Origin: a virus
IMG/VR virus record: IMGVR_UViG_3300020026_000006
Location: 1-6,081 of that record
Strand: one strand, 5' to 3'
Length of the DNA: 6,081 nucleotides
The position numbers and the translations under genes are program-made. How positions within the stretch are numbered: the first letter of the stretch is position 1; every line of letters starts with the position of its first letter. The notes below the pieces were generated by a model. It was not told where the DNA came from. It searched no databases and worked only from the letters and a program-made list of their open reading frames with translations. This document shows, piece by piece, positions 1 to 6,081 of the stretch.

Positions 1-121
1 CTGCTGTACCCAATAAGAGTAAAGATTAGGCAAATTCTGATTAGAATTAACCGCGGAAATCTGTCCCAAAACCTCATCATAAGAAGACCTAAATTCATTA
101 AAACAAGGCTCCTGCGCAAAC
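1..121. repeat. Left copy of the exact 121-nt terminal direct repeat (circular-assembly overlap)
   Basis: Base-by-base comparison shows 1..121 (ctgctgtacccaataagag...ctcctgcgcaaac) is identical to 5961..6081. The repeat lies inside the capsid ORF and preserves its reading frame. Confidence 0.97.
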
Positions 122-1620
122 GATAAATTAGCCTCAACGGTCGGAAGTTTACTAAAGCGCCAATTCGGAACACGCTGATAACCGATATCATTATAAATAG
201 GATTGAAATAATCAGGTCCTTCGTAATTTAAATAATCCGGCCGAACACCACTCCAATAGTAAACAGGTCGAACGCTCAACATATCAATCATATAGCCGGG
301 CTCTCGGAAGTAATAAGATTGACGACGACCCAAGCGATCATTAAAGGCAATTGCACCACCCTGCTGGCCAAGGGGCTGGTTGTTGCCAAAATTATTATCA
401 CCGGCTTGATTCATAACAATTTGAACATTGACTGTCTGTGAAGCAGAAAACAAAAGTTTAGGTCGGTCAACATGCTCGATTTTGGAGGCAAAGAAGGTCT
501 CCAGCCAATCGCTGTAACGACTACCACCAGCACCCAAAAGATCCTTATACTCTTGAAGACGAGAAGCAATAGCCAACTGCGGAATTGTATCAACGCCAGA
601 CATAGATACGGCCGATCCAGAACCAATAGGAAGAAGACGACTAAAACGATCGGGATTCGCCGGAATAACCGCAATAGGGTGAGCGATATTAAAAACAATC
701 GAATTTTGCAAACCCTTGGAATCATCGCGACCAGAAAACTGATCAGTCGGAGCGATGGAGCCCATCAAAGAATAAGCACTCGAAACAGCAACAACGGGGT
801 AACCGTCACCATTCGCGCCGGCAGCAGAACCAGTAGATTCGATATCCGAACGGATGATTTGATCAAAAAGATTGCGACGGTTGTAGGTATTATTCGAAGA
901 AGGTACAGCAGAAGGATAGAACTGACTCTCAAAATAAGCATCGAGGTGCTCCAAATTACCATAACGCTGAACAAAGAACGAGTCATTTCCCGGATCGTTA
1001 AATTCGTAAGTAATGGAACTTCCGGAAGTTGCGGCGGACGTGTAATACCAGGAGGCGGGCCAAGCGAAAGAATAAAGTCCCCACTGGGAATAACCGTAAT
1101 AATTTCGAACGATGTCCCAGTAAGCTAAATAAGTATCAGCGTTAGCCCACTGAATAGGGGAAGTACCAGCAGGAAGCGAACCGCCGGGAGAAGCGGTAGC
1201 GTTGGTAAAATTAATAGAACGATTGGACACCCGAAGCCAATAAAGAAGCGAGTTTGTAAAAGGAGCGGAAACAGAAGGTTTAGCGCCGGCACCGGCAGAA
1301 CCAGGCAGAGCAGGAATCCAATTCAAGCTCAAATCGTTCATGTCGAACTTACTGCTATTTGTCCGCAGCTCAGGATGATACAGCTGAAGAGGCACCCAGA
1401 AACGATGCAAACGAATAGTGTAGGGGTTGAATGTTGGGACAGCGAGGGGGTTGCTACGAACGTCAATGCCTTGCTCGATAGACACACGATCCCGGGCATT
1501 AATAAAATCGATCCGCACCGGATATAAAATACCCGGTGTGCACGTAAAGGCCTTGCTCTCAGGGACATCGTATCGAGAGTAGCCATTTACAGCGTGTGAA
1601 ATAAAAGGTTGTTTTCCCAT
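1..1620 (-). CDS. VP1: Major capsid protein (Microviridae F/VP1 family), 5' part: codons 1-540 of 603. It continues across the circular junction into 5960..5769.
   Basis: The gene is missing from the ORF track because it has no in-window stop. I translated the minus strand by hand from ATG 1620..1618 and found no stop in any of the 540 codons down to position 1. The N-terminus reads MGKQPFISHAVNGYSRYDVPESKAFTCTPGILYPVRIDFINARDRVSIEQGIDVRSNPLAVPTFNPYTIRLHRFWVPLQLYHPELR. Later blocks include LAYWDIVRNYYGYSQW and LLGAGGSRYSDWLETFFASKIEHVDRPKLLFSAS. From memory, not from a search, these resemble conserved blocks of microvirus capsid proteins. The ATG lies 3 nt downstream of the Rep stop. Confidence 0.93.
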   Translation of the reverse strand, partial: MGKQPFISHAVNGYSRYDVPESKAFTCTPGILYPVRIDFINARDRVSIEQGIDVRSNPLAVPTFNPYTIRLHRFWVPLQLYHPELRTNSSKFDMNDLSLNWIPALPGSAGAGAKPSVSAPFTNSLLYWLRVSNRSINFTNATASPGGSLPAGTSPIQWANADTYLAYWDIVRNYYGYSQWGLYSFAWPASWYYTSAATSGSSITYEFNDPGNDSFFVQRYGNLEHLDAYFESQFYPSAVPSSNNTYNRRNLFDQIIRSDIESTGSAAGANGDGYPVVAVSSAYSLMGSIAPTDQFSGRDDSKGLQNSIVFNIAHPIAVIPANPDRFSRLLPIGSGSAVSMSGVDTIPQLAIASRLQEYKDLLGAGGSRYSDWLETFFASKIEHVDRPKLLFSASQTVNVQIVMNQAGDNNFGNNQPLGQQGGAIAFNDRLGRRQSYYFREPGYMIDMLSVRPVYYWSGVRPDYLNYEGPDYFNPIYNDIGYQRVPNWRFSKLPTVEANLSFAQEPCFNEFRSSYDEVLGQISAVNSNQNLPNLYSYWVQQ

Positions 1621-1623
1621 AAA

Positions 1624-2694
1624 TTAAATGTTTAGTTGGAGTTTATAGTGGTCTCTCCAAAATTGGAGAATATCCAAATCTAGCCACGTCGGGGGGTCAA
1701 AGTCAGGCATCCTACGAGAGGAGGCAGAGAATCGCATTATTTGCTTCTGTTCCCACATATACGACGCTCTACGGGATACGGAGGAATTGAGGTTGAACCG
1801 ATCAATACACAGAGACACGATACGCTTAACCAGAGGAGACTTGCTGAAACGTGAATAAGAATCAGCAGAGGTAATCGAGCGAACAACGTCGTCTTCCGGT
1901 TCAAGGTATCTAAGATAATACCGAGGAATCGAGTAGTTATAATTGATACGCTTCTCAAAATCAAAATAAGACCACGACGAAGTACGGGAAGAAGGGCGAG
2001 GCATATGGCCAAGAAAATCACCAACGCCAGCAGATACGAATTTTCGCGTATAACGGCGATGTTGGAGGAGGCAAGATAAAGGTGTAGACTTTCCATCTAA
2101 AACGATATTTTGATCGGATATTTCTGCAGGGTTAAATTGAATTTGCTTAGTAACGTATTTGACGACGTATCGCGCACGCTTATGCGTGCCTTTCGCAAGC
2201 CAAACAAAACCAAGGTCACGGACAGCCGATCGAATATCATTGTATAAACAATCGGTGCCAAAGAGAAAACCGTGGAAGTGAAGACGTGGCGCCGATCCTG
2301 TTTCTGGATGGGTGCCAAACTCCTGGAAAAACGCATGTTTAAAGGAGTGGCCGATCTTATGACGGATTCGCTCATTCCATCGTCGGATAAACTTAGAAGG
2401 ATCTCGCAATGCTTCATCGTAGTACTTCGGTGATATAGTTATTGTAATAAAAATAGCCTGCCGAGACTCGGCTTTACAGCGAGCAAGCTCGCGCTCTAAG
2501 CGAACGAACCAATCATTGCGTTGACGACGCAGGCAGTCTTCGCATTTTCCGCAGGGTACCATAAGCCACTGACGGGCGATATCCCAGGGGCGGAGGGCCA
2601 ATGCGGATTTAGCGACATCGGAGCCATTACGACAGGGGTTCTTCTTGTCAAAATAACGACGATTGCGTATCCATATAGGCGACGAGCAGGGCAT
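1624..2694 (-). CDS. VP4: Rolling-circle replication initiator (HUH endonuclease, Microviridae VP4 / phiX174 gpA-like), 356 aa
   Basis: ATG at 2692..2694 and TAA at 1624..1626. The N-terminus MPCSSPIWIRN and the cysteine cluster VPCGKCEDCLRRQRNDWFVR (2533..2553 region) are typical of VP4. Motif I is IFITITIS (2431..2451). The HUH motif is RLHFHGFLFG (2260..2283). Motif III has two tyrosines, YVVKYVTK (2146..2169), compared with YVAKYVNK recalled for phiX174 gpA. Confidence 0.95.
   Translation of the reverse strand: MPCSSPIWIRNRRYFDKKNPCRNGSDVAKSALALRPWDIARQWLMVPCGKCEDCLRRQRNDWFVRLERELARCKAESRQAIFITITISPKYYDEALRDPSKFIRRWNERIRHKIGHSFKHAFFQEFGTHPETGSAPRLHFHGFLFGTDCLYNDIRSAVRDLGFVWLAKGTHKRARYVVKYVTKQIQFNPAEISDQNIVLDGKSTPLSCLLQHRRYTRKFVSAGVGDFLGHMPRPSSRTSSWSYFDFEKRINYNYSIPRYYLRYLEPEDDVVRSITSADSYSRFSKSPLVKRIVSLCIDRFNLNSSVSRRASYMWEQKQIMRFSASSRRMPDFDPPTWLDLDILQFWRDHYKLQLNI
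1675..1701 (-). promoter_or_regulatory. Weaker Bacteroides-type promoter-like motif inside the 3' end of Rep, upstream of the capsid gene
   Basis: The coding strand has TAGATTTG (plus 1675..1682 = caaatcta) 54 nt upstream of the capsid ATG, and a TTTG (plus 1698..1701). The spacer is only 15 nt, shorter than I recall as typical. Confidence 0.2.
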
Positions 2695-2894
2695 TACATC
2701 AGACTTTGAAGACAGTCAAATTTAACCCGAGGATGATCACGACGACAGCGGGCAAGATAGTCTTTCGCGGAGACGTGGTCGGGAAACCAGGCGATAACGA
2801 CACGCCTTCTACCGCGGTATGCGCCAATGGAAAAACGGAAGGACGAACTACCAACAATAGGTGAAAACTTGGGTCTAAAATCGAAATAATCCAT
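2694..2894 (-). CDS. Small basic protein (66 aa) translationally coupled to Rep; function unknown, possibly DNA-binding
   Basis: ATG at 2892..2894. Its TAA (2694..2696) overlaps the Rep ATG by 1 nt (TAATG on the coding strand). The sequence is rich in Arg and Lys (RGRRR, ARCRRDHPRVK). I recognise no homolog. The ORF sits at the 3' edge of the structured non-coding region. Confidence 0.55.
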   Translation of the reverse strand: MDYFDFRPKFSPIVGSSSFRFSIGAYRGRRRVVIAWFPDHVSAKDYLARCRRDHPRVKFDCLQSLM

Positions 2895-2904
2895 GATTAA
2901 AAAG

Positions 2905-2995
2905 ATTAATATACGCTTCGAAAGACGGTACTTTCGAGCGCGAAAACTGTTGCGTTACGCCGCTCGACGGCCTAACGGCCGGGACGCTTCGCGTC
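2905..2995 (-). promoter_or_regulatory. Cluster of short GC-rich stem-loops plus an AT-rich box, directly upstream of the 66-aa/Rep/capsid gene string; candidate origin or priming signal
   Basis: Three stems can be read directly. The first is tcgaaag (2918..2924) / ctttcga (2931..2937) with a 6-nt loop. The second is cggcc (2968..2972) / ggccg (2977..2981) with loop taac. The third is gacgc (2983..2987) / gcgtc (2991..2995) with loop ttc. The coding strand then reads GCGTATATTAATC (plus strand 2905..2912 = attaatat). The motif acgcttcg occurs twice (2913..2920 and 2984..2991). Confidence 0.4.
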
Positions 2996-3030
2996 TTCGA
3001 GCTCCATGGCTCCACTCCACAAACTATATA

Positions 3031-3044
3031 CCGAATAAATTCGG
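3031..3044. repeat. 14-nt palindrome ccgaat-aa-attcgg in the non-coding region
   Basis: Read directly: 3031..3036 ccgaat is the reverse complement of 3039..3044 attcgg. It could be a protein-binding site or a tight hairpin. Function is unknown. Confidence 0.5.
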
Positions 3045-3054
3045 TGAGTTTGAG

Positions 3055-3092
3055 AACAAAAACTCCCAGGGGAGAGAAGGCTCCCCTGGGGG
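3055..3092 (-). terminator. Intrinsic (rho-independent) terminator downstream of the 107-aa ORF
   Basis: There is a perfect 10-bp GC-rich stem, cccaggggag (3065..3074) / ctcccctggg (3081..3090), with a 6-nt loop (3075..3080). On the coding strand the stem is followed immediately by AGTTTTTGTT (plus strand 3055..3064). No T-run follows it on the plus strand, so its orientation matches the gene strand. It begins 47 nt after the stop at 3138..3140. Confidence 0.7.
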
Positions 3093-3137
3093 CCTCATAG
3101 TTAAAGAACTCTTCCACCAAGCGGGCGGGTAACAACC

Positions 3138-3461
3138 TTAGTTCCCTTTCCCTTCTTCTTCCGTCGCGCCTTCATCGTAGTTAAGATCAAAATCAAACAT
3201 GAGAACCATTGTATTATCAAAGAATTCGATGGCGAAACCAGGAAAATCTCCACAGGCGGCAATAAGATCGACTACTTTCGGGTGGTAAACGTAGAGTGAA
3301 TCGCTAATATCCGATTTCTCGAAGAAACGCGCAATAGGAGTGTTCGCGACGGCGCCGAGGGGCAGCGGATCAAACTGACCATCCTTAAAACGACCTATCT
3401 GAGCAAGGTCAACCTTGAGGGCCGGATTAACTCGCCGAATAACAACATGAATCTGTGTCAT
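3138..3461 (-). CDS. Hypothetical acidic protein, 107 aa (orphan accessory ORF)
   Basis: ATG at 3459..3461 and TAA at 3138..3140. It starts 11 nt after the upstream ORF stop. The C-terminal tail is acidic (FDFDLNYDEGATEEEGKGN). It resembles no core microvirus protein that I recognise. Confidence 0.62.
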   Translation of the reverse strand: MTQIHVVIRRVNPALKVDLAQIGRFKDGQFDPLPLGAVANTPIARFFEKSDISDSLYVYHPKVVDLIAACGDFPGFAIEFFDNTMVLMFDFDLNYDEGATEEEGKGN

Positions 3462-3472
3462 AATAATGTGAT

Positions 3473-3793
3473 TTAAAATTTTACTTGAAGTTCATCGCAA
3501 AAACGCTCCCAAGCAGCATTCTGCTTACCCCAAAATTCAACACCTTCGGGTGTCGAAACAAATGGAAACGAAGAGGTAATAAGACTGCTCGGGCCAAAGC
3601 TGAAATCGTAAAGAGAGTGTCGAATCTGGGAACGCAAGCGTTCACGGAAACTCCTATAAGGCATAAAACTACGTTCGTAGTTCGCCTTAAAAGCTGCAAA
3701 TATTCCTCGATCAACAAGCCACGCGATGAATGCGTACTCTACAACGTCAATCAACAGCTTTTTGTTTTTAATGCTTTTGCTAGACTTTTTCAT
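3473..3793 (-). CDS. Hypothetical protein, 106 aa (orphan accessory ORF)
   Basis: ATG at 3791..3793 and TAA at 3473..3475. The N-terminus is Lys-rich (MKKSSKSIKNKK). The C-terminal segment SFPFVSTPEGVEFWGKQNAAWERF is aromatic/Trp-rich and looks like a folded small domain. It is the first gene after the promoter-like motif. Confidence 0.65.
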   Translation of the reverse strand: MKKSSKSIKNKKLLIDVVEYAFIAWLVDRGIFAAFKANYERSFMPYRSFRERLRSQIRHSLYDFSFGPSSLITSSFPFVSTPEGVEFWGKQNAAWERFCDELQVKF

Positions 3794-3819
3794 GGTAGTA
3801 TGGTTATTGGTTTACAGTA

Positions 3820-3850
3820 CAAATATACAGCAAAAAGGACAAGCAACAAA
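3820..3850 (-). promoter_or_regulatory. Candidate Bacteroides-type promoter (-33 TTTG / -7 TAnnTTTG)
   Basis: The coding strand reads aacTTTG-ttgcttgtcctttttgctg-TATATTTGtac. TTTG corresponds to plus 3847..3850, the spacer is 19 nt, and TATATTTG corresponds to plus 3820..3827. The -7 box ends 26 nt upstream of the ATG at 3793. It lies in the 83-nt gap after the VP2 stop. The consensus is recalled from the Bacteroides fragilis promoter literature. Confidence 0.4.
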
Positions 3851-3876
3851 GTTCAAAAGGTTGGAGAAATTGTTCA

Positions 3877-5133
3877 TTATTTCCCAGAATAACTACGACG
3901 GGTGTAGATACTGCCGTTCTTATCGCCGTAGGGGCTGTAAATCTCCTTCACCTCTTCATAGCCTTCCGGGCCGGTAGGACCAGCAGCCTTACGACTAGCG
4001 TAGGCAGCACCGGCAACACCTGCAGCAGCAGCAAAGGAGCGAATAATGTCATGACCAAGACGAAGCCTAGAATTGCGCAAATCCCAACGAGTATTACCGA
4101 CTTCAAGTTGAGCGGCTTCAGCAGCAGCAGACTTCAGAATAGACGTAGTCTCAGCAACTTTCATCATCTTAGTCTCGACGACTTCACCTTTATCATTGCG
4201 AATCTGGACAGGCACTTCTTTCTCCCAGTTAAGCTCGAACCATTTCTGCATATCCTTGAGTTCTTGGTAGTTAAGCTTCATCCGAGACTCGGACTCGGCG
4301 GCAGCGGACATGTTAGCAATAGCCGAAGACCAAGCGACAGCAAGCGCAGCACCGGCTTCGGGCTCAAACCAATCATTAGTTTTGCGAAGATTCTGGTACT
4401 TTTCCTCCAAAATGCCGGCCATAGCCATGATAGAAGACATCTTGTAACCTTGAGTAATATTGGATAAATAGGCGTCAATTGCAACGATTTGAGCCTGCGC
4501 CTCACGAAGGTTGGCGAGCTCACGAGCATCCTTAACCTGATGTTCGGCAATCTGCAACTCAAATTTATCCATTCGTTCTCGCCACTCTAGCGAATGAGTA
4601 TTACCTCGAAGATTAGCGGCTTCTGCATCATCTCGGTTGGCGGCAGCGGCATTGCGATCAATCGTGGATTGTGCAACCATGTTTTGAGCGATAGAGGTAG
4701 GATCAGCAGGGGCAAAACCACCAGGAGCGATCGGGGAGCCACCCGAAGGACCAGAGGCAGACGGCATGGACGCAGAACCACCTGACATAGTGGCATTTAC
4801 ACCGACGCCAGAAGAGCCTAGGACAGCAGCAGGCGTCACGCCGGCCTTCAGGTAACGATCGAAAACCTTCGAAGGATCATTGTAGGAATTTTCGTAATCA
4901 AACTGTCTCTGCCAATTGGCGTAGGAAAGCTCGGACTGTTTTTGCATTTGCTCTAAAGCGTACTTCTGTTGAAGAGCCATTTGTTTTTGCTGAAATCTCC
5001 ACTGACGGCGAGCGTTCATACCTCCAAAAAGCTGACCGAGGGCGCCGGTAATTAAACCCGTAGAAGCGGTAGACGCAGCCGACTGGCCAAGAGCCTGGCC
5101 AAAAGATGCGGCAGCAGCAGCAGGAATAGGCAT
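3877..5133 (-). CDS. VP2: Minor capsid / DNA pilot protein (Microviridae VP2, functional analogue of phiX174 H), 418 aa
   Basis: ATG at 5131..5133 and TAA at 3877..3879. The N-terminus is Ala/Gly-rich (MPIPAAAAASFGQALGQSAASTASTGLITGALGQLFGG). It is followed by a Q-rich helical segment and YNDPSKVFDRYLKAGVTPAAVLG, which resembles the ...R...AGLNP..L block I recall from VP2 proteins. Long Ala/Glu/Gln helical stretches follow. Size and position are typical of the second-largest structural gene. Confidence 0.85.
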   Translation of the reverse strand: MPIPAAAAASFGQALGQSAASTASTGLITGALGQLFGGMNARRQWRFQQKQMALQQKYALEQMQKQSELSYANWQRQFDYENSYNDPSKVFDRYLKAGVTPAAVLGSSGVGVNATMSGGSASMPSASGPSGGSPIAPGGFAPADPTSIAQNMVAQSTIDRNAAAANRDDAEAANLRGNTHSLEWRERMDKFELQIAEHQVKDARELANLREAQAQIVAIDAYLSNITQGYKMSSIMAMAGILEEKYQNLRKTNDWFEPEAGAALAVAWSSAIANMSAAAESESRMKLNYQELKDMQKWFELNWEKEVPVQIRNDKGEVVETKMMKVAETTSILKSAAAEAAQLEVGNTRWDLRNSRLRLGHDIIRSFAAAAGVAGAAYASRKAAGPTGPEGYEEVKEIYSPYGDKNGSIYTRRSYSGK

Positions 5134-5134
5134 A

Positions 5135-5326
5135 CTACAAATGAGTTAAATTATTAGAACGAATGATGTAATCAACGCGAACAGTGTCAATATGAACGCC
5201 ACTACGTTGCATCCTAGCTTGAGCCGAACAGGAAGAGAGGAAAAAAGCAGCCAATGCAGCAACAATAGATGAAACGAGCGTCCAAAAAGCTTTTGACTTA
5301 TAGAAGGGTTGCTTAACGTCTGACAT
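5135..5326 (-). CDS. Small secreted/membrane protein with a lipoprotein-type signal peptide (63 aa from the internal ATG; the track ORF extends to an upstream ATG at 5437, giving 100 aa)
   Basis: From ATG 5324..5326 the sequence is MSDVKQPFYKSKAFWTLVSSIVAALAAFFLSSC-SAQARMQRSGVHIDTVRVDYIIRSNNLTHL. It has a Lys-containing n-region, a ~17-aa hydrophobic core, and L-S-S-C at residues 30-33, which fits the lipobox pattern [LVI][ASTVI][GAS]C. The TAG stop (5135..5137) is 1 nt from the VP2 ATG. The sequence upstream of this ATG is A/T-rich (ctttaatttttaatacc), like the other starts. The alternative ATG at 5435..5437 adds 37 Arg-rich residues that span an inverted repeat, so I favour the shorter form. 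Confidence 0.55.
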   Translation of the reverse strand: MSDVKQPFYKSKAFWTLVSSIVAALAAFFLSSCSAQARMQRSGVHIDTVRVDYIIRSNNLTHL

Positions 5327-5350
5327 GGTATTAAAAATTAAAGAACGATA

Positions 5351-5429
5351 GAAAAATGCGCGGCCTCTCCTGCAGTCGTTACCAATAACCTCTAGAAATT
5401 CACGAACTCTTCCAAGAGGGGTCCGCGCA
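5351..5429 (-). promoter_or_regulatory. Imperfect long-range inverted repeat followed by a T-run (terminator-like or regulatory structure) between the 98-aa ORF and the lipobox ORF
   Basis: tgcgcgg+cctct (5357..5368) pairs with agagg (5415..5419) and ccgcgca (5423..5429), leaving a 3-nt bulge. On the coding strand the 3' arm is followed by TTTTTC (plus 5351..5356). The enclosed loop is ~46 nt, and competing small hairpins exist (for example ctctt/aagag at 5407..5418), so this is not a canonical terminator. Confidence 0.3.
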
Positions 5430-5459
5430 CGTAGCATATATCGTCAAGTAAAGGATATA

Positions 5460-5756
5460 CTATTTTTCTTCAGGATTAGGAGGTGTCGAGGAAGGTTTTG
5501 ACATATCAAGCTGAGAATCAATAAGTTCCTGACCGACCTCGAGACCGTCAAACTTATCCATACGGGAAAACGAATTAGGGTCGAAATCAATTTCGGGATT
5601 GAACCTCTCACCCTTATCGAAGTCCGAGGATGAAACCTCCACATCCGGACGACCGGGAAGAACGTCAACAGAGCCAGAACCGTCGAGAACGGAAAGAATC
5701 TGCTGACCGCGAGAAATATATTCAGGAGTATCTTCTAAAAACCAATCAAGTGCCAT
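5460..5756 (-). CDS. Highly acidic, probably disordered 98-aa protein immediately downstream of the capsid gene; possible scaffolding-type protein
   Basis: Coordinates are from the ORF track. The TAG stop is at 5460..5462, and the start lies ~12 nt after the capsid stop. The sequence MALDWFLEDTPEYISRGQQILSVLDGSGSVDVLPGRPDVEVSSSDFDKGERFNPEIDFDPNSFSRMDKFDGLEVGQELIDSQLDMSKPSSTPPNPEEK is very rich in D/E/S/P. I recognise no similarity to gokushovirus VP3. The scaffold idea rests only on position and composition. Confidence 0.6.
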   Translation of the reverse strand: MALDWFLEDTPEYISRGQQILSVLDGSGSVDVLPGRPDVEVSSSDFDKGERFNPEIDFDPNSFSRMDKFDGLEVGQELIDSQLDMSKPSSTPPNPEEK

Positions 5757-5768
5757 AAAATCAATATA

Positions 5769-6081
5769 TTAGCGATTAGACAAACGGGTAGCAAAAGTTT
5801 TATTCACCAAATTCTTTTTCTGAACCGCATAGGAGAGATTTACAAAAAAATTATCCTCTAAGTTCGAAGAAAAGGGAGAATTTACCTGCGTCATATCAAC
5901 AAAAAGAGCCGGCGCGTAACTCTCCGAAGAAGGCCAGTTTGAAGACCAATTTAAATAGCGCTGCTGTACCCAATAAGAGTAAAGATTAGGCAAATTCTGA
6001 TTAGAATTAACCGCGGAAATCTGTCCCAAAACCTCATCATAAGAAGACCTAAATTCATTAAAACAAGGCTCCTGCGCAAAC
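5769..6081 (-). CDS. VP1: Major capsid protein, 3' part. 5769..5960 holds the unique final 63 codons plus the TAA stop; 5961..6081 duplicates 1..121.
   Basis: The track ORF 5769..6029 is in the same frame as the 1..1620 ORF through the repeat (6029-5960=69, and 69 and 1620 are both multiples of 3). Its listed initial M is a TTG (caa at 6027..6029) internal to the capsid sequence ...SSYDEVLGQISAVNSNQNLPNLYSYWVQQRYLNW.... The TAA stop is at 5769..5771. Confidence 0.92.
   Translation of the reverse strand, partial: FAQEPCFNEFRSSYDEVLGQISAVNSNQNLPNLYSYWVQQRYLNWSSNWPSSESYAPALFVDMTQVNSPFSSNLEDNFFVNLSYAVQKKNLVNKTFATRLSNR
5961..6081. repeat. Right copy of the exact 121-nt terminal direct repeat (circular-assembly overlap)
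   Basis: Identical to 1..121. It reaches both window ends exactly, as expected for a circular contig cut at an arbitrary point. Confidence 0.97.

Follow-up and report, generated by a model that had tools for sequence, protein, structure and literature searches.

What is the role of two small genes of no named family that lie between the pilot gene VP2 and the Rep gene of a microvirus, bracketed by what look like a promoter and a terminator? We addressed this question in IMG/VR virus record IMGVR_UViG_3300020026_000006, positions 1 to 6,081, the whole stretch of 6,081 nucleotides (nt) analyzed here and hereafter called the window, which represents a complete circular microvirus genome with all genes on the minus strand. 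The two genes, open reading frame (ORF) A (3473-3793), encoding 106 amino acids (aa), and ORF B (3138-3461, 107 aa), are separated by 11 nt, as the initial annotation had described. The unit formed by a promoter, two genes and a hairpin is real and conserved, with a Bacteroidetes-type promoter and genes that lack a named family. The initial annotation read it as a self-contained, moron-like cassette of accessory genes; our analysis upholds the bracket of promoter and hairpin at the level of motifs and not the self-containment, since a hidden third gene lies inside the unit, overprinted on the end of B. We think it likely that A, B and this J-like gene constitute a promoter-proximal transcription unit that belongs to the microvirus backbone and is not cargo.

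The hidden gene had been missed at first reading, as had a 66-codon ORF (o66, 2694-2894) between the hairpin region and Rep. It occupies positions 3101-3175 beneath the acidic tail of B, in the +1 frame relative to B, and encodes a 24-aa peptide, MKARRKKKGKGTKVVTRPLGGRVL, with an isoelectric point (pI) of 12.0 and a charge of +9.5. Its ATG (3175-3173) lies inside B, within the stretch encoding ..YDEG..; the gene overprints the last 12 codons of B and extends 37 nt beyond the B stop codon to its own stop at 3103-3101. We compared this and the other features of the locus across relatives of the window, namely the 80 closest IMG/VR genomes, fetched by Rep (82-94% identical), plus GenBank records; given the Rep-based retrieval, the sample is not biased toward genomes bearing A or B. 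Over 63 genomes, the entropy by codon position within the overlap is 0.16/0.12/0.90 in the J-like frame and 0.90/0.16/0.12 in the frame of B; beyond the B stop it is 0.13/0.08/0.86, and it rises to 1.4-1.9 after the J-like stop. The 37 nt past the B stop are highly conserved, with variation only at every third base. The peptide itself is near-identical in almost all relatives, including those in which B is 36-56% identical; in MG945813 it is near-identical though B and A are 56% and 33% identical, respectively. Recognizable versions are also found in PQ006896 (MSRKKKKSRGNGTRVVTRPVGGKVL), PQ006814 and Dulem virus 225. Variation at third positions of its own frame, together with an ATG that never changes and a peptide that hardly does, thus indicates a real coding gene under selection. 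We also considered a programmed frameshift fusing B to the basic tail and rejected it, since the ATG at 3175-3173 is invariant even where the B residue switches between D and N, which points to independent initiation. A total of 101 IMG/VR stretches carry the coding motif for the C terminus of the peptide, and the 80 listed all come from microvirus-sized contigs (4.7-6.3 kb); the ORF is unannotated in the six GenBank relatives inspected, and the peptide is absent from a collection of 15 billion proteins, showing how small overlapping genes escape annotation.

The peptide is J/ORF8-like by its features and position, a resemblance that would be of consequence in this group of phages. In a study of Alpavirinae-type Bacteroidetes proviruses no J/VP8-like DNA-binding protein was found (PMC3091885), and a later survey of 81 genomes reported no microviral genes in Alpavirinae beyond VP1, VP2 and VP4 (PMC3394797). 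The lineage of the window is related to Alpavirinae-type groups but unclassified, and the J-like gene is a candidate for the missing J/VP8 function in one large gut lineage.

The gene on which it is overprinted, ORF B, encodes an acidic protein (pI 4.5), predicted by AlphaFold2 to form a compact alpha/beta domain (predicted local distance difference test score, pLDDT, 87; predicted template modeling score, pTM, 0.78) with residues 98-107 disordered. Homologues are numerous, 576 and then 1,022 in protein databases, and among the 227 listed all are 107 aa long except three close variants (125, 104 and 102 aa), nearly all of them on contigs of at most ~6.3 kb. One protein in the same 90%-identity cluster as the window's ORF B, P0405, is found on 68 contigs, the longest of which, with 11,974 nt, has about double the length of the genome and may be an assembly of concatemers. 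Sequence searches of B against Pfam, NCBIfam and the PDB gave nothing significant and PHROGs a single weak match; a profile match to PDB 8fje "E8" (E = 0.001) was ignored, as no stretch passed threshold. The fold of B likewise found nothing significant in the PDB by Foldseek; the best match, GFRP (E = 0.03, template modeling (TM) score 0.31-0.41), was too weak to use, and the pentamer idea that it raised was kept as a lead only. Against BFVD, the fold matched uncharacterized proteins only, and the significant matches bearing a name came from other microviruses, including Microvirus mar42 (TM 0.55-0.75). Judged by its modeled fold, B thus appears to be a microvirus-specific protein, distributed more widely than sequence searches show.

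These data bear on two functions that had been suggested for B. Its acidic EEE tail had been taken as a possible mark of a DNA mimic. The conserved "EEEGKGN" tail is the only disordered part of the model (pLDDT <50) and overlaps the basic ORF, so that its composition follows from the overlapping gene and is no sign of DNA mimicry; nor does the fold of B match any in the PDB. An anti-defense function of B by some other means is conceivable. A lysogeny-related role had also been put forward and finds no support, as the B profile, searched against 185,579 bacterial and archaeal species, each represented by a single genome, found no relative of B. B occurs universally in the lineage, is specific to microviruses and is coupled, physically and in translation, to the gene of the peptide; it may instead act in packaging or morphogenesis, working with the J-like peptide, an assignment that we offer tentatively.

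A related idea is that A and B are core morphogenesis proteins diverged beyond recognition, A and B corresponding to a VP3/B-like internal scaffold and a VP5/C-like protein of single-stranded DNA (ssDNA) synthesis and packaging, the whole unit being a morphogenesis module. Gene order is consistent with this: the slot between VP2 and Rep holds VP3, VP5 and a J-like gene in phiMH2K, and VP3 and ORF8 in Chp2, an arrangement mirrored here by VP2-A-B-J-like-(o66)-Rep. Sizes are similar (~85-150 aa), B is acidic like VP5 and VP3, and B is universal in the lineage with a fold found only in microviruses. No similarity of sequence, profile or fold to the gokushovirus proteins was detected, however. Pfam, Chlamy_scaf included, gave no match, and hhalign of A, B, o66 and the 98-aa ORF that follows VP1 (o98) against VP3, VP5 and alpha3 B, C, D and K gave no signal, A and B reaching a probability of at most 1.1%, with shallow alignments as targets. 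In agreement with the initial annotation, A and B are thus unlike the named microvirus proteins compared. Furthermore, no match of A or B in BFVD is labeled VP3 or VP5, an absent label being weak evidence, and A, which is deletable and whose module occurs in non-microviruses, is ill suited to a scaffold. The acidic 98-aa ORF after VP1 is, moreover, already the literature's positional candidate for a VP3-like scaffold (PMC3091885, PMC3394797). We consider it unlikely that A and B are such diverged VP3 and VP5 proteins, and retain for B the tentative role proposed above.

ORF A differs from B in most respects. It encodes a basic protein (pI 9.7) modeled as four helices (AlphaFold2 pLDDT 89, pTM 0.82), with the C-terminal motif AFxFxxTPEGxxFWxxxxxxW, and its 87 homologues, all of ~106 aa, lie on contigs of up to ~6.4 kb. 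Pfam, NCBIfam and PDB sequence searches yielded nothing significant, and in PHROGs 57 of the 87 members match phrog_30073 and 23 match phrog_10949, both families of unknown function. An exhaustive search with the A profile returned 83 representative proteins, of which those with a single module measure 65-120 aa, while in proteins of 150-570 aa the C-terminal module is repeated two to five times in tandem. The motif common to A, phrog_30073, phrog_10949 and this wider "TPEG-FW" module reads F..FL...G....F..N ... LI..AF.W..TPEG..FW......W; compared with the tandem proteins, A is a single copy with a basic N terminus, and no member has a known function. The proteins with tandem A-like modules constitute an undescribed repeat family. 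P0353, P0356, P0357, P0384 and P0387 are examples of 300-570 aa with three to five modules (..AFxWxxTxEGxxFWxxxxxxW..); P0387 has a weak match in a 735-kb uncultured phage (LR756501, 42926-43423) and also matches a microvirus. Searches for related loci of P0366 and P0357 in viral contigs and of P0356 in genomes found none, and tblastn of P0355 and P0370 against GenBank phages returned nothing; a look-up of contigs encoding A itself gave no entry. By Foldseek, the A model weakly matches (E 0.006-0.13) small proteins of gut myoviruses, siphoviruses and crAss-like phages.

A may also be dispensable in part of the lineage. L005 (MG945141; 4794-4904) and L061 (5240-5361) have lost it precisely; the promoter and leader are retained in both, now ~45 nt ahead of B, which the promoter would drive directly. 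Because A is the fastest-evolving gene, is deleted in these two promoter-keeping genomes and has a module found outside the lineage, an accessory role is plausible for it, and A could be the only accessory or host-directed component of the unit, a possibility to which we give somewhat less than even weight. The accessory function initially proposed for the pair is therefore plausible for A alone and is not supported for A and B together. A bolder combination is that A is a single-copy member of an undescribed AFxWxxTPEGxxFW...W module common to microviruses, possibly crAss-like and other tailed gut phages and the 735-kb phage, acting in host takeover or anti-defense, in an arms race with the host, and encoded at the most highly expressed position of the genome, and that B is the dedicated acidic partner or chaperone of the overprinted J-like peptide. 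Taken jointly, these two claims are improbable, although if B were such a partner, the B/J overlap would be a novel answer to the absence of a J/VP8 gene reported for Alpavirinae-like microviruses.

Whether the unit is cargo can be judged from its distribution. The order VP2-A-B-o66-Rep holds in nearly all complete relatives, IMG/VR genomes and GenBank records alike, and tblastn combined with annotation shows VP2, an A-like gene, a B-like gene, a gap and Rep in an order common to the GenBank relatives. Among complete ~6-kb IMG/VR genomes, the exceptions are L061, without A, and L015, with a disrupted B; other absences fall in truncated contigs. In no complete genome did we find B or the J-like gene absent, the disruption of B being confined to that one assembly. 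In PQ006896 and PQ006814, whose Rep is 66-69% identical, profile hidden Markov models detect A-, B- and J-like genes in the same slot; Dulem virus 225, at 61% Rep identity, still shows the J-like gene clearly, with a marginal match for B (E 0.006) and no significant one for A, an A-like ORF being recognizable by eye only. The slot thus holds diverged homologous alleles and not the swapped cargo of a variable hotspot, and B behaves as a conserved core gene of the clade, A nearly so. Base composition is also ordinary: G+C content is 44.0% in the cassette and 46.1% in the genome, and its value at third codon positions is inside the range of the other genes.

Among genomes with Rep 87% identical, median identity to the window is 82% for o98, 68% for o66, 60% for B (range 50-89%), 54% for VP2 and 48% for A (range 32-78%). 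The ratio of nonsynonymous to synonymous substitution rates (dN/dS) is 0.27 for A, 0.23 for B, 0.24 for VP2, 0.13 for o66, 0.09 for Rep and 0.08 for o98, values that are rough, as dS is near saturation, and that point to purifying selection on both A and B. In pairwise identity, A and B follow each other (rho 0.55) more closely than either follows its neighbors (0.10-0.33), suggesting that the pair recombines as a unit of homologous alleles. In addition, the pilot gene VP2 is mosaic (36-95% identity) among genomes that hardly differ in Rep, and its divergence is only weakly linked to that of A and B, suggesting frequent recombination near the VP2-A junction.

It is against this background that the moron-like interpretation has to be weighed, namely that A and B form an autonomous accessory cassette for host takeover, anti-defense or lysogeny, inserted with its own promoter and terminator between core genes. 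Promoter-like and terminator-like signals do flank the pair, neither gene has a named family, the evolutionary rate of both is two to three times that of Rep and close to that of the pilot VP2, which contacts the host, the two are co-inherited as a recombining unit, and A is deletable with relatives in other phages. These properties have to be set against the presence of the pair as homologous alleles in nearly all complete relatives, a B gene never missing from a complete genome, a near-invariant J-like gene inside the unit, a promoter that is the genome's only conserved consensus one and stays after loss of A, the lack of a terminator boundary in sister lineages, the ordinary G+C content, the lack of B relatives in bacterial genomes together with the small, microvirus-sized contigs of the listed B homologues, and an acidic tail that is a disordered artefact of the overlap. 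An inserted cassette is therefore very improbable, and for the A-B pair this interpretation is already largely refuted. The case calls for caution: in a 6-kb genome, a promoter and a terminator bracketing genes without named family do not make a moron.

The promoter itself supports placing the unit in the backbone. Bacteroides promoters have a -7 TAnnTTTG and a -33 TTTG element ~19-21 nt apart. The predicted promoter of the window consists of TTTG at 3847-3850 (-33) and TATATTTG at 3820-3827 (-7), followed at or just past the predicted transcription start by a leader, GTAAACCAATAACC (3802-3815). As initially reported, this TTTG-N19-TATATTTG precedes A, and it is the sole match to TTTG-N17-22-TAnnTTTG on either strand of the window. 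Within the window alone the motif is not significant, with 0.22 matches expected by chance and at least one match in 36 of 200 shuffles; its significance comes from conservation in relatives. Of 65 complete genomes, 30 have the strict two-box motif upstream of A and only 4 have it anywhere else (0.52 per genome), and the -7 box alone stands at the promoter site in 52. Measured from the conserved leader, 55 of 67 relatives have TTTG 25-45 nt upstream and 54 of 67 have TAnnTTTG exactly 4 nt upstream, the others having near-consensus variants such as CATCTTTG. The VP2-A spacer (~80 nt) has a conserved layout, with ..TTTTGAACTTTG.., a T-rich spacer, TAnnTTTG, 4 bases, the leader, ~12 nt and the ATG. 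The leader has near-zero entropy between variable flanks and occurs once per genome in 66 of 87 sequences (67 carry it, one with two copies); it could serve as a leader or in translation, be a site for Rep or anchor recombination, and it partly resembles AATAAC, the core of the phiX174 origin. In these tightly packed genomes, with all genes on one strand, the two-box site thus appears to be the sole consensus promoter that is conserved and, being kept in genomes without A, is not the private promoter of an insert. An internal Rep promoter within o66 was considered and rejected: TAnnTTTG is present there in 41 of 65 genomes, but within conserved KFD codons and without a -33 partner. Local tandem duplications of 100-200 nt are found in the VP2-A spacer of L010, L014 and L029 and at the end of B in L019, L022 and L053; lying near the promoter or the B/J junction, they may be assembly artefacts or recombination scars at module borders.

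At the other end of the unit, the hairpin HP1 (3065-3090) starts 10 nt after the J-like stop and consists of stems CCCAGGGGAG and CTCCCCTGGG, which form 10 perfect pairs (8 of them G-C) around a 6-nt loop, directly followed by a T-rich run, AGTTTTTGTT (3055-3064, 7 of 10 T). It ranked first in a terminator scan and is the longest perfect looped inverted repeat of the window, in line with the initial annotation. To follow it across relatives we built a covariance model from six hairpins, an earlier RNAalifold analysis of a MAFFT alignment having recovered only 4 pairs, as loop lengths differ. The model finds one sense-strand copy in 45 of 87 sequences, with weaker opposite-strand echoes of the same site in nine, and in the resulting alignment of 54 matches, which is model-fitted and so leans toward structure, 96.6% of cells are paired, with double-sided changes in 6 of the 10 pairs. 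Compensatory cells number 64, compared with 26 expected in shuffles (0 of 500 reach 64) and 0-4 in slid controls. Over 63 genomes the median minimum free energy is -23 kcal/mol (median z -4.2). A search of Rfam with E up to 1 found no family in the window.

HP1 does not stand alone. The 206 nt from 2895 to 3100, folded as ssDNA, reach -46.5 kcal/mol (z = -6.8, 0 of 200 shuffles as good) with four or five hairpins. Downstream of HP1, the rest of this structured non-coding region (2895-3054) contains HP2 (3030-3045), followed by ATATAG, a Y-shaped, co-varying element (2962-3002) with the mini-hairpin GCGAAGC, and a near-invariant hairpin (2914-2940) with the sequence TCGAAAGTACCGTCTTTCGA (2918-2937). 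These elements are conserved and co-vary in the alignment, and the region is probably an ssDNA origin or priming region.

Based on these results, we propose the following model of expression, in which the host of this uncultured gut microvirus is probably a member of the Bacteroidota, judged by the promoter type. The -33 TTTG/-7 TAnnTTTG promoter directly after VP2 would start the main mRNA, with its near-invariant leader, encoding A, B and the overprinted 24-aa basic peptide. The peptide would be the lineage's equivalent of phiX174 J and gokushovirus ORF8, neutralizing, condensing and tethering the ssDNA in the capsid. HP1, 10 nt past the peptide stop, would most likely act as a partial intrinsic terminator that makes the A-B-J message abundant, with read-through supplying o66, Rep, VP1 and the remaining genes, and it would at the same time form the first stem of the structured, origin-like non-coding region. 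The model is testable in that it predicts a single promoter of Bacteroidetes type, abundance of the A-B-J message and attenuation at a hairpin with which an origin-like region begins, and it casts B as a putative microvirus-specific core fold and A as the only reasonable candidate for a role in host interaction or anti-defense.

Several points weigh against this model. The anatomy of the locus, its conservation, the coding signals, the hairpin covariation, the folds and the distributions are observations, and activity of the promoter, termination at the hairpin, synthesis of the peptide and the roles of A and B are deduced from sequence. The J-like peptide has no match to Pfam Microvir_J (PF04726), phrog_3780/2354 or phrog_10695 with E up to 10, a search in which control peptides matched their own families, so its likeness to J and ORF8 is one of features and position, homology not being demonstrated. 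What links B to packaging is adjacency, overlap and universal co-occurrence. The strict two-box motif is found in fewer than half of the complete genomes (30 of 65), and non-consensus promoters may exist elsewhere. As for termination, only 41-56% of relatives have 4-5 T or more among the 10 nt that follow the stem, so the T-run is the weakest element of the argument for a terminator. In genomes of the short-intergenic class (MG945813 type), the same stem as in HP1 is an outer one with two GNA-loop mini-hairpins inside it, and a mixed pyrimidine run comes next. Lastly, PQ006896, PQ006814 and Dulem virus 225 have no hairpin between the J-like gene and o66, and the J-like stop abuts or overlaps the o66 start.

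The points on termination feed an alternative view of the hairpin, in which HP1 is mainly the first stem of an ssDNA origin or packaging region, serving complementary-strand priming or as a Rep or packaging signal, and A, B, J, o66 and Rep form one operon. HP1 opens a region that folds strongly as ssDNA, whose downstream parts co-vary and contain GCGAAGC/CCGAAGG mini-hairpins, and a DNA mini-hairpin of exceptional stability, d(GCGAAGC), is reported at phage replication origins; the outer stem of the short class encloses these same mini-hairpins, and the T-run is inconsistent among relatives. The hairpins, moreover, are moved or gone in the three sister genomes: Dulem virus 225 has related hairpins between VP2 and A instead, in PQ006896 the largest gap between annotated genes is elsewhere, between VP1-proximal small ORFs, and PQ006814 has almost no intergenic space. 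The lack of a hairpin in the three sister genomes suggests that the stem may serve ssDNA functions and not termination. On the other hand, the stem lies 10 nt past a stop codon in sense orientation with a 7/10 T run in the window, and G-T/G-U pairs, better tolerated in RNA than in DNA, are frequent (12 and 6 sequences at two positions); origin and terminator functions are, in addition, not mutually exclusive. We therefore regard a mainly ssDNA role for HP1 as a serious possibility, if a minority one, and favor the model in which HP1 probably attenuates transcription in the lineage of the window as part of a movable, origin-like structured module. In either case, the promoter-to-terminator boundary is not a defining feature of this gene set.

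The remainder of the genome is compact. The record appears to have a terminal redundancy of ~121 nt (1-121 and 5961-6081) from a circular assembly, as judged by the first and last 30 nt, which recur 121 nt from the opposite end; the true genome would then measure ~5,960 nt. Rep/VP4 lies at 1624-2694 and VP2 at 3877-5133, and these were the only two of the seven ORFs scanned that PHROGs and Pfam recognized. VP1, identified by tblastn to annotated capsid genes, wraps around the window ends, its reading crossing the redundant junction. The nearest GenBank records are unclassified "Microviridae sp." and bajarodmic, Dulem, Dipodfec and tortoise microviruses from animal feces, with VP1 identity of at most 72%. 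Pfam, NCBIfam and PDB sequence searches of o66, o98 and a 100-aa ORF (o100) gave nothing significant. The basic 66-aa product of o66, the next gene downstream of the A-B unit, has no match in PHROGs either; its stop overlaps the ATG of Rep, it is found in nearly all relatives, including the most distant, and annotated in only some of the GenBank ones, and it could be a C/VP5-like or Rep-accessory gene. The ORF right after VP1, o98 (5460-5756), has a pI of 4.05 and looks disordered, and hhalign shows no similarity of it to VP3. Upstream of VP2, o100 (5135-5437) has a hydrophobic segment ending in a lipobox-like FFLSSC and is a candidate lysis or membrane protein, with two allelic forms in relatives, of ~100 and ~63 aa.

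Compared with known systems, the unit shares with the morons of lambdoid phages, which are promoter-gene-terminator inserts, a set of same-strand genes bracketed by a promoter-like site and a hairpin with a T-run. Unlike morons, it is neither sporadic nor compositionally distinct nor foreign; a core gene lies within it, and no consensus promoter other than its own is conserved in the genome. A closer parallel is found in the Bullavirinae, where a promoter-D-(E)-J-terminator TJ unit exists and where phiX174 combines gene overprinting with a graded scheme of promoters and terminators, the unit ending in J stopping at TJ, in analogy to what we propose here. In phiX174, G4 and alpha3, as in the window, the J or J-like gene is the last of a promoter-proximal unit, with a hairpin before the next genes. 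Alpha3 J (MKKARRSPSRRKGARLWYVGGSQF) and MKARRKKKGKGTKVVTRPLGGRVL are both small (24-38 aa) and very basic, with a short non-basic C terminus containing GG. The likeness at the C terminus, GG-x-x-[LF], concerns a few residues only (..RPLGGRVL here, ..YVGGSQF in alpha3 J, ..RGGIRF in Chp2 ORF8 and ..RGGIRL in phiMH2K). The two differ in that alpha3 J matches Pfam Microvir_J and phrog_3780 at 1e-14 to 1e-17, which MKARRKKKGKGTKVVTRPLGGRVL does not, in that the aromatic LWYVGG anchor is absent here, and in that the Bullavirinae J gene lies between the external scaffold and capsid genes, whereas the J-like gene lies between the pilot gene and Rep and is itself overprinted on its upstream gene.

That position is the one occupied in gokushoviruses by ORF8 of Chp2 and the putative DNA-binding protein of phiMH2K, between VP2/VP3(/VP5) and Rep. 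All three peptides have many arginine and lysine residues, and ..PLGGRVL here compares with ..MRGGIRF in Chp2 and ..MRGGIRL in phiMH2K; the peptide of the window is shorter (24 aa vs 38-44 aa), overlaps its upstream gene and does not match phrog_10695, home of both gokushovirus peptides. By analogy, the unit would thus be of a known kind, a microvirus promoter-proximal operon ending in the gene of a small DNA-binding protein, and what appears to be new is the unannotated, overprinted J-like gene, the architecture of a single promoter with a structured region, and the family of A-like modules outside the lineage.

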